From the IMG/VR virus record IMGVR_UViG_3300043430_000238: a stretch of 7,340 nucleotides of DNA; one strand, given 5' to 3'. This DNA is from a virus. Below, piece after piece: positions 6,371-7,340 of this stretch. The position numbers and the translations under genes are program-made. The notes under the pieces are model-generated. The model did not search any database and was not told where the DNA came from. It saw only the letters and a program-made list of their open reading frames with translations. Position 1 is the first letter of the stretch; each line of letters begins with the position of its first letter.

Positions 6371-7340
6371 ATGAGATTTTTTAAATATTTAGTTTTTCTT
6401 TTTTTATCAATTCTAACTACCAGTACATTTGCTGAATTAGTTTGTACTTATCAAGCTAATGGTGATAGCACTGAATACCAAAGTTTATCTGCTGCTTGTG
6501 CTTCTATATTTAAAATTTCTGGACGCTCTAACAATGATTTTGATTGTAAATTGGATGGCGGTCGCATTGTTCTTTATTCCAAAGGCACTACAAGTAGTAT
6601 CGGCCAATATGGTTCACGTACTTGTACTGAACAGCAAAAATGTCCGACTAAAAACTGGCCTATTCCCGTTTACTTTCCAGATACTGACCCTATCCCGACT
6701 AAAATTTGTAAAGAGTTAGGCACTAAATTTTGTTCTTATTCGCGTGATGGTGATGGTGTTATTATTAATTCCAGCGAGGGTAGAAAGATGGTCACTCTGT
6801 TTTCTGATTCTGAAGTACCTCAAGCTTCTTGCACTGAGCAGAAAGAGGGCCAGTGTGACAGAAATGACCCTTATGGTAAATGCTATACTCCACCGAATGA
6901 CAATTGTACACGTCAAGCCAATGGTTCAATTGTATGTCCTAATAATGATCCTCCGCCTATTAAACAGGGATGCAATTCAGGTGAAACTTATTGTGTTAGA
7001 CCTTCTTCTGGTTGTGGAACAGGATATGTAACAGGTTCATTCAATGGTCAACAACTCTGTGTTAAATCTTCTCCTAGTACAGGCACAGGCACAGGAACTG
7101 GTACAGGCACAGGCACAGGCACAGGCACAGGCACAGGCACAGGAACAGGCACAGGAACGGGTACAGGCACAGGAACGGGTACAGGCACAGGAACGGGCAC
7201 AGGCACAGGAACGGGCACAGGCACAGGAACTGGTACAGGCACAGGCACAGGAACAGGCACAGGAACGGGTACAGGCACAGGAACGGGCACAGGAACGGGT
7301 ACAGGCACAGGCACAGGAACGGGCACAGGCACAGGAACTG
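6371..7340 (+). CDS. gIII: Adsorption/minor coat protein pIII-like, 5' part (3'-partial in the window; continues at nt 128 after de-duplication; joined product 508 aa)
   Basis: ATG 6371 is the first start after the in-frame TGA at 6359..6361. The signal peptide is [22 protein letters not shown]. The N-terminal region (to 7078) contains 16 Cys. From 7079 the sequence reads T(GT)43 with no stop before the window end. This ORF is missing from the supplied track because it has no stop in the window. The SD is weak. Confidence 0.85.
7079..7340 (+). repeat. Hexanucleotide GGN-ACN tandem tract encoding (Gly-Thr)n; upstream half of the tract that continues at nt 128
   Basis: All hexamers from 7082 to 7339 are gg[c/a/t]-ac[a/t/g] in the pIII frame. 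In the de-duplicated circle the perfect tract is 43 + 22 = 65 GT dipeptides. Confidence 0.95.

Follow-up and report, generated by a model that had tools for sequence, protein, structure and literature searches.

The window, by which we mean the whole stretch of DNA analyzed here, is a 7,340-nucleotide (nt) virus record (IMG/VR IMGVR_UViG_3300043430_000238) that is, by gene content, the genome of an inovirus. Its first 127 nt repeat its last 127 nt exactly, which is the signature of a circular contig from a de Bruijn assembly at k=127, and the molecule is therefore a circle of 7,213 nt. The subject of this report is an uninterrupted run of 65 glycine-threonine (GT) dipeptides in a pIII-like adsorption protein that the circle encodes across its junction. 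The open reading frame (ORF), at 6371..7213 and onward through 1..684, is open without interruption across that junction and specifies 508 amino acids (aa). An earlier reading of the DNA, made from its letters alone (the sequence-only reading), had described the tract as a linker in pIII and had doubted that its length could be read from the assembly. The features of the gene are as follows.

6371..7078, plus strand: 5' part of the pIII-like gene, whose product begins with a predicted signal peptide and continues into an N domain rich in Cys, 16 in all (ORF, phrog_17788)
7079..7340, plus strand: a single Thr codon, then GT units 1-43 and the opening base of unit 44 (sequence)
1..127, no strand: terminal duplicate of 7214..7340, an assembler k-mer overlap with no additional sequence; covers GT units 23-43
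127..258, plus strand: GT units 44-65 (sequence)
40..116, plus strand: copy 1 of a 77-nt exact repeat, the longest in the circle (repeat search)
148..224, plus strand: copy 2 of the 77-nt exact repeat (repeat search)
259..348, plus strand: GDS(GT)n region (GDS, Gly-Asp-Ser) with 21-nt and 33-nt repeat units (Tandem Repeats Finder); copy number varies among relatives
349..684, plus strand: 3' part of the pIII-like gene, a 111-aa C domain (sequence; phrog_7568 match, E 5e-7)

Domain architecture of the adsorption protein

The protein is built, in order, of a signal peptide, the 16-Cys N domain, (GT)65 at residues 238-367, the GDS-(GT)n region, and the C domain. The N domain, matched by phrog_17788 over residues 1-236 (E 4.8e-59), ends in a module of the form CDxxDPYGxCYTPPNxxCTRxxxGSIxCP...C[VI]K.SPS, in which the Cys, Pro, and Tyr columns are invariant in alignments. 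The C domain holds a Cys-x21-Cys segment (Cys456-x21-Cys478), a hydrophobic anchor at about residues 486-504, and an RSKD tail, and its stop codon overlaps the ATG of the next gene (TAATG). Hydropathy peaks only at residues 7-25 and 486-504, as judged by a Kyte-Doolittle profile and inspection. The gene lies between the capsid gene and the pVI-like and pI genes, and its product has an N-terminal signal peptide and a single C-terminal anchor with a charged tail; by position and topology, it appears to be the pIII-position adsorption or minor-coat gene. The assignment to pIII made by the sequence-only reading is thus upheld by an Inovirus_capsid match upstream, DUF2523/pVI-like and Zot/pI-like genes downstream, the signal peptide, and the C-terminal anchor.

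An AlphaFold model of the N domain (window 6371-7081) is rich in beta strands, with a mean predicted local distance difference test (pLDDT) score of 85. Foldseek found no neighbor for this model in the PDB or BFVD at E<=0.001, and the fold may be undescribed. The C-domain model consists of a helix, a Cys-bracketed beta-hairpin (C-domain residues 63-76), and a long terminal helix; it gave no Foldseek match, but with a pLDDT of only 59 it is too poor for fold comparison.

The sole frame that joins both flanking domains is the Gly-Thr frame. A 94-aa ORF on the minus strand (7048-7332) was considered and rejected, as it is open merely because the hexamers contain no stop codons. The other two plus-strand frames of the tract, which would read Ala-Gln and His-Arg, were set aside as well; they too are open only for want of stop codons in the hexamers, and neither links the N- and C-domain frames.

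Sequence and repeat structure of the Gly-Thr tract

The tract is exactly (GT)65, or 390 nt, with 43 units at 7082..7339 and 22 at 127..258, and it is followed at 259..348 by GDS-(GT)4-GDS-(GT)2-GDS-(GT)2-GDS-GT, for a whole linker of 160 aa. The sequence-only reading had all of these counts and coordinates exactly right. It was also correct that the contig overlap lies inside the tract and that the first 38 nt from 7082 are identical to nt 1..38. A perfect dipeptide run of 130 residues is far beyond chance.

Seven synonymous hexamers make up the 65 units (GGCACA, 33; GGAACG, 12; GGTACA, 9; GGAACT, 5; GGCACT, 3; GGAACA, 2; GGTACG, 1). Hexamer positions 1, 2, 4, and 5 are constant in 65/65 units, with changes at third codon positions only. 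By Tandem Repeats Finder, there are period-12/18 arrays at 1-251 and 7079-7338, a 21-nt unit present three times at 286-347, and a 33-nt unit present 2.2 times. Above these lies a block of 18 units (108 nt), evident from a lag-108 identity of 0.911 and from units 22-41 and units 40-59, which differ by one nt. This 108-nt higher-order repeat is a natural substrate for unequal exchange.

GGC accounts for 55% of Gly codons in the tract versus 18% in the rest of the genome, where GGT accounts for 61%; such a bias fits a tract that grew from a GGCACA seed, and not codon optimization. The T content of the tract is 4.6%, and as single-stranded DNA it folds less stably than 199 of 200 shuffles (z = +2.1). 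Adding or losing 6-nt units leaves the N and C domains in phase whatever their number, and the reading frame is therefore safe against errors in copy number. All variants observed in the tract are in frame, and its units of 6, 18, 21, and 108 nt are unlike those of phase-variable on/off genes, in which the unit is not a multiple of 3.

The tract in related contigs

Related contigs were found by exact lookup of the window's pVI-like and capsid proteins. The most informative is L004 (ENA ERZ650245, 8,010 nt), a linear contig that contains, internally, a complete 505-aa gene with a perfect (GT)70. Compared with the window, its N domain has 40% protein identity and its C domain has 99.7% DNA identity. 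The codon mixtures of the two tracts differ, with ACA predominating in the window and ACT in L004, and the DNA identity between them, 0.745, is close to the floor calculated for hexamers with 4/6 positions fixed and the remaining positions random. Across both tracts, 0/135 units depart from Gly-Thr, and nonsynonymous changes are found at 0/540 positions.

Seven of the eight other related contigs recovered break inside the repeat. Among them, L006 to L011, obtained from different samples with different pipelines, each pass from unique flank into GT or GDS units, where the contig ends; the eighth contig, L012, begins within the C domain. Three further lookups returned little. Exact-pattern scans with the 3' flank gave 0 matches in metagenome_contigs, viral_contigs, and genome_contigs; a search for C-domain homologs returned just one 80-aa fragment; and neither the full-length nor the fragment pIII proteins had an exact match in the clustered protein collection. 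Past one genome unit, L004 continues at 6381-8010 into another replication gene, with just 77% identity to the first; the arrangement represents either two different filamentous prophages in tandem or a chimeric assembly.

Judged from these sequences, the tract is real and translated. Since the contig junction falls inside the repeat, the tract might in principle be an assembly artifact, a spurious low-complexity loop joining unrelated contig ends, and the sequence-only reading had named such an artifact, or flanking halves not joined in real molecules, as what would overturn it. Neither is borne out: the ORF is uninterrupted, and L004 has the complete gene in one contig. GT units also continue from unique sequence on both sides in several samples from at least three sources (JGI, ENA SPAdes-style contigs, and Logan), the unit pattern is an irregular, noncyclic string, and a conserved C domain follows in the same frame. 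Given a tract that is internal to L004 and that L006 to L011 enter from unique flanks, an artifact is excluded for practical purposes, and we give it a negligible probability.

The comparison of tract lengths among relatives that the sequence-only reading had proposed yields 65 versus 70 units, and GDS motifs number 3, 4, or at least 5 (fewer in L004 and more in L007 and L009). These differences bear out its expectation of length change without frameshift, as does the junction at one end of L005, a second assembly of the window's circle; this junction is 1 or 18 units shorter. Silent-only hexamer variation over 135 units, together with in-frame length differences among relatives, marks the tract as a coding minisatellite.

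The same reading had taken the shuffled codons as a sign of selection on the peptide, and this holds in part. The absence of any replacement change in 135 units, against abundant silent variation, indicates such selection as far as sequence comparison can, as does a second lineage with a perfect (GT)70. At least 4 to 8 independent silent events are needed for nine hexamer types, and the chance that all of them fell at the two silent positions is about 0.01 or less. However, synonymous scrambling is no proof of long-term purifying selection, as a precedent shows, and it should not be read as ancient divergence, because the minisatellite of the Drosophila period gene acquires the same pattern fast.

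Copy number of the units

The claim that the assembly cannot resolve the number of units was too strong in one respect and sound in another. The longest exact repeat (77 nt) is shorter than the 127-nt overlap, and so the printed path is unambiguous at k=127. Moreover, outside the tract, L005 (JGI 3300047477, 7,353 nt) matches the window at 99.985% identity. Its termini share no exact overlap, and yet they align ungapped to the window circle with a mutual overlap of 140 nt; 7,353 minus 140 is 7,213, and the second assembly therefore gives the same circle and the same 65 units. The part of the claim that survives concerns the breaks inside the repeat and the variant tips of L005. The last 9 nt of L005 depart from the window path exactly at the end of the first 77-nt repeat, making its right tip a perfect match to the tract minus 1 unit or minus one 18-unit block, while its first 48 nt hold six substitutions, two of which create Gly-Ser units. 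A count of at least 87 units, obtained by summing both ends of L005, was rejected, as the ends align ungapped and mismatches are confined to the last 9 and first 48 nt.

We regard 65 as the best current estimate from assemblies and not as a measured value. About 65 units is probably the modal value for the phage in the window, and in-frame length variants probably coexist with it.

The linker position across the family

With the N domain as query, a full HMMER scan gave a set of 63 family representatives, 26 of them at E<=1e-30. All 63 share the Cys-rich module ending in C[VI]K.SPS, and low complexity begins at the same point in each. What follows that point varies widely. Linkers are Pro/Asn/Asp-rich (often with a second small Cys module) or Thr/Ser/Asn-rich, among others; P0010 has a collagen-like linker, GKDGENGKDGLNG (GKDGEN type); and repeats take the forms (GGDGDGSGS)n in P0015, (GGGSD)n in P0002, P0028, and P0044, (GTGSGDGS)n in P0005 and P0006, and mixed GN/GS/GD runs in P0026. 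Among the 63 representatives, GT runs reach at most 4 and Gly-X runs at most 24. Truncated entries aside, protein lengths are mostly about 430 to 590 aa, and the window's 508 aa is typical. Because composition varies while length stays in this range, the linker is, on sequence grounds, best described as an exchangeable spacer of roughly conserved length, of which (GT)65-70 would be one extreme solution.

Evidence of exchange comes from two comparisons. P0070, encoded on an ENA contig of 3,463 nt, shares with the window the C domain and the larger part of the N domain, with a near-identical receptor subdomain, and has a Pro/Asn-rich linker with a small Cys module in place of (GT)n. The window and L004 are 97 to 100% identical on both sides (window 5754-6353 and 313-1012) of a divergent cassette, in which the receptor-binding part of the N domain is unalignable (window 6354-6931 versus L004 3100-3700) and the 3' edge is the end of the repeat. 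Window 6354-6931 thus looks like a swapped host-range cassette. Another contig, L013, ends shortly after the start of the pIII-like gene, near window 6397.

In Acinetobacter prophages and in inovirus genomes, relatives of the N domain are encoded at the same place in the gene order. When the N domain served as a single-protein query, no relatives were found in viral_contigs or genome_contigs; a scan based on alignment turned up one Acinetobacter bereziniae prophage. The proteins of several relatives are marked "partial," their contigs ending in the repeat (P0002/L015, P0005/L014, and P0012 from Acinetobacter baumannii). L014, binned as 'Myroides sp.', is an entire inovirus genome, broken inside a perfect 24-nt repeat that encodes GTGSGDGS (1-60 and 6020-6141). 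L015 is an Acinetobacter indicus prophage beside type VI secretion genes, with its (GGGSD)n linker at 6700-6770.

Comparison with known systems

The closest functional comparison is with pIII of the Ff phages (f1/fd/M13), which likewise has low-complexity, Gly-rich segments with short in-frame repeats between its receptor-binding domains and its C-terminal virion-anchoring domain. In Ff pIII, the N1 and N2 heads on flexible glycine-rich linkers reach the pilus and then TolA, and the linkers are flexible, disordered in the virion, and invisible in cryo-electron microscopy (PMC10175506). Ff pIII has two linkers of (E)GGGS type, totaling about 58 aa (406 minus 67, 131, and 150 aa; domain sizes from PMC10175506), whereas the window protein has one of 160 aa, the GT part of which is a perfect Gly-Thr alternation; the linker is therefore longer and more regular, as the sequence-only reading had held. 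Neither flanking domain has a sequence match in the PDB, a Pfam scan of the N and C domains gave nothing at E<=1 except one irrelevant weak match, and the C domain compared with that of f1 by BLASTP gave E 1.1. The C-domain model, at pLDDT 59, resembles the helix/hairpin/helix arrangement of f1 only qualitatively.

True homologs are the phrog_17788 proteins at the pIII position of Acinetobacter inoviruses and prophages, which share with the window protein the N domain, the invariant Cys module, the linker start, and the gene position. Some members (P0012, P0014, P0005, and P0026) have short GT/GS/GD repeats. Most of these relatives have, between linker and anchor, an extra segment of about 100 to 150 aa of repeated polar motifs, absent in the window, which from its appearance we infer to be helical or coiled-coil. 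The 'tspb protein' label on Dulem viruses 60 and 63 is the depositors' annotation only, and neither the N nor the C domain has a Pfam match to Neisseria TspB at E<=1.

A closer likeness at the level of DNA is the Thr-Gly minisatellite of Drosophila period, built of ACN-GGN cassettes with silent variation only. Its alleles arise as cassettes are gained and lost, which happens far more often than point mutation (PMC4109182). Both are perfect dipeptide runs with silent third-position variation that change length by cassettes and are read as flexible interdomain spacers. The differences are that period alleles have 14 to 23 pairs in a nuclear clock protein with a length phenotype, temperature compensation (PMC4109182), and the window and L004 have 65 to 70 in a secreted phage protein. 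The resemblance is an analogy, not homology. In the literature that we found, Drosophila gave the only work on Gly-Thr or Thr-Gly repeats when phages and bacteria were searched for.

Interpretation and alternative explanations

We consider it likely that the tract is a real, translated interdomain spacer of a pIII-type adsorption protein, at once a flexible tether, a coding minisatellite, and an exchangeable cassette. The spacer would tie a disulfide-rich receptor-binding head to a short C-terminal domain that would be anchored in the inner membrane before assembly and would later cap the virion. In function, it would correspond both to the Gly-rich linkers of Ff pIII and to the spacers, of low complexity or coiled-coil type, found in its relatives. 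At the DNA level, a minisatellite of GGN-ACN hexamers in 18-nt and 108-nt higher-order blocks may gain and lose units in frame by slippage or unequal recombination, selection would remove units other than Gly-Thr, and the linker would move as a cassette between related phages. We infer flexibility, tether function, the slippage mechanism, and peptide-level selection, the tether role by analogy with Ff pIII. By calculation, a linker of about 160 residues has a contour of about 58 nm fully extended and an end-to-end distance of about 7 to 8 nm as a random coil.

Several points count against this reading or its details. Neither domain gave a sequence or fold match to Ff pIII in these searches, and "pIII" is here a positional and topological label rather than a claim of homology. 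Flexibility is assumed, and alternating Gly-Thr could form a turn or sheet. As for the count, the window and L005 both end within units 20-43, although a random 127-nt junction would fall inside the linker with a chance of only 3.7 to 4.9%, which hints at a branch in the assembly graph; L005 may share a study with the window and is perhaps not fully independent; and L004 ends on a 55-nt repeat, its longest in-gene tract repeat being 47 nt, so that it was probably assembled at k=55 and its count of 70 is also only an estimate.

These last points lead to the strongest competitor, namely, that the tract exists but that 65 is wrong or not a single value, the assembler having closed one of several paths. 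Besides the shared break in units 20-43, it would explain why the right tip of L005 is an exact 1- or 18-unit deletion junction and its left tip a variant with six substitutions and two Gly-Ser units, why L006 to L011 end on reaching the repeat or within it, why L012 has its start in the C domain, and why L014 and L015, from relatives, are likewise broken in the repeat linkers that they carry; in its favor, too, are two adjacent 108-nt blocks that differ by 1 nt. Yet the longest exact repeat falls short of 127 nt, L005 gives the same circle length, and 508 aa is within the family's usual size range. The overlap 127-mer also holds the base that separates block 1 from block 2, and for that reason a collapsed third 108-nt block, which keeps some probability, would by our reasoning not branch at this k-mer. 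On balance, a wrong or mixed count is a real possibility but not the one that we favor.

The other alternatives concern what the tract does. It could act at the DNA level, as a homology patch for swaps of the receptor-binding cassette, as a T-poor segment, free of structure, in the packaged single strand, or as both. The 97 to 100% identical flanks of the window and L004, with the 3' boundary of the divergent cassette at the repeat end, point this way, as do P0070 as a further mosaic of the same parts, the 4.6% T content, and folding less stable than that of 199/200 shuffles. However, the window and L004 tracts are fully diverged at synonymous sites, leaving little exact homology for recombination, and a strict dipeptide with free third positions is the signature of a protein-level constraint; we hold this role to be improbable. 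More doubtful still is a mucin-like stalk, in which the Thr-rich tract would be O-glycosylated in the periplasm by the general O-glycosylation system of the host and thereby stiffened and protected. In its favor, at least 65 exposed Thr residues would face the periplasm before assembly (a topology deduced from the signal peptide and C-terminal anchor), the hosts are most likely Acinetobacter, and Acinetobacter possesses PglL-type O-oligosaccharyltransferases. The known O-glycosylation sites of Acinetobacter and Neisseria, though, are Ser residues in Ala/Pro-rich contexts, which are unlike Gly-Thr, and the Pro/Asn-rich or Gly/Asp/Ser linkers of close relatives have few or no Thr.

The interdomain spacer could also have a bolder form, which we regard as unlikely, if a shade less so than a role for the DNA itself: a hypermutable in-frame length module that maintains a standing mixture of tether lengths tuned to the host surface (capsule depth, pilus geometry) and that doubles as a boundary for cassette exchange. 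If this were true, the length of the linker would be inherited, would evolve rapidly, and would help to determine which hosts a filamentous phage can infect.

Implications

Glycine-rich pIII tethers are textbook material and are the site where phage-display fusions are made. To our knowledge, the natural determinants of pIII tether length and composition have been little studied. The tract is an extreme form of the known repeat-encoded flexible linker of inovirus adsorption proteins and, in itself, of modest interest. Its clade, with near-identical N and C domains on either side of interchangeable linkers, forms a natural series, from (GT)65-70 through (GTGSGDGS)n, (GGGSD)n, and collagen-like to Pro/Asn-rich linkers, that could be used to test the effect of tether length and stiffness in Acinetobacter infection. 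For Acinetobacter, a priority pathogen, the cataloguing of filamentous prophages has only just begun (PMC12285184).

The second use is as a warning about assembly in this family of adsorption genes. In short-read assemblies, linker repeats regularly cut pIII genes short and break inovirus genomes apart, and because of these breaks the adsorption proteins of the family are underrepresented in databases or listed as "partial."

Genome context

The remaining identified genes of the window are the following.

684..968, plus strand: DUF2523/pVI-like minor coat gene (profile matches)
970..2184, plus strand: pI/Zot-like assembly ATPase gene (profile matches)
3741-4961: G2P-type replication initiator gene (PF05144, E 3.8e-48)
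5982..6221, plus strand: major capsid protein gene, 79 aa (Inovirus_capsid match), just upstream of the pIII-like gene

The gene order is thus G2P replication gene, capsid, pIII-like gene, DUF2523, and Zot, and the G+C content outside the Gly-Thr tract is 38%. The ORF list and family scans, covering the whole window, include no gene for a pIV-type secretin, and the phage therefore presumably exits through a host secretin. The cellular relatives of the adsorption protein, wherever identifiable, are all from Acinetobacter, which makes an Acinetobacter species the most likely host. Species with relatives include A. baumannii, A. indicus, A. junii, A. vivianii, and A. bereziniae.

Among GenBank phages, there is no near-identical DNA beyond one noncoding match of 53 nt, in which window 3373-3425 is 98% identical to Acinetobacter phage M02 (OQ693633, 3998-4051). 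Inside it lies a hairpin, GAGTCCAC-n11-GTGGACTC, and the surrounding block is kept in L004 too; this segment is a candidate replication origin or terminator. At window 3042-3070, the sequence ATTTCGCATAA-ctctatg-TTATGTTACTT looks, by eye, like an XerC/XerD dif-type site with a 7-nt central region. A strict dif pattern with a 6-nt spacer gave no match, and the segment is a candidate phage attachment site (attP) for integration at the host dif site. Finally, the long noncoding region 2185-3420 contains pairs of direct repeats at 2384-2444 and 2872-2935, namely, aaaagaaaaatagtgtaatga in two copies and gga-g[c/a]gaatggaacggaaagagtgt in two copies, which may be iterons or binding sites for a regulator.

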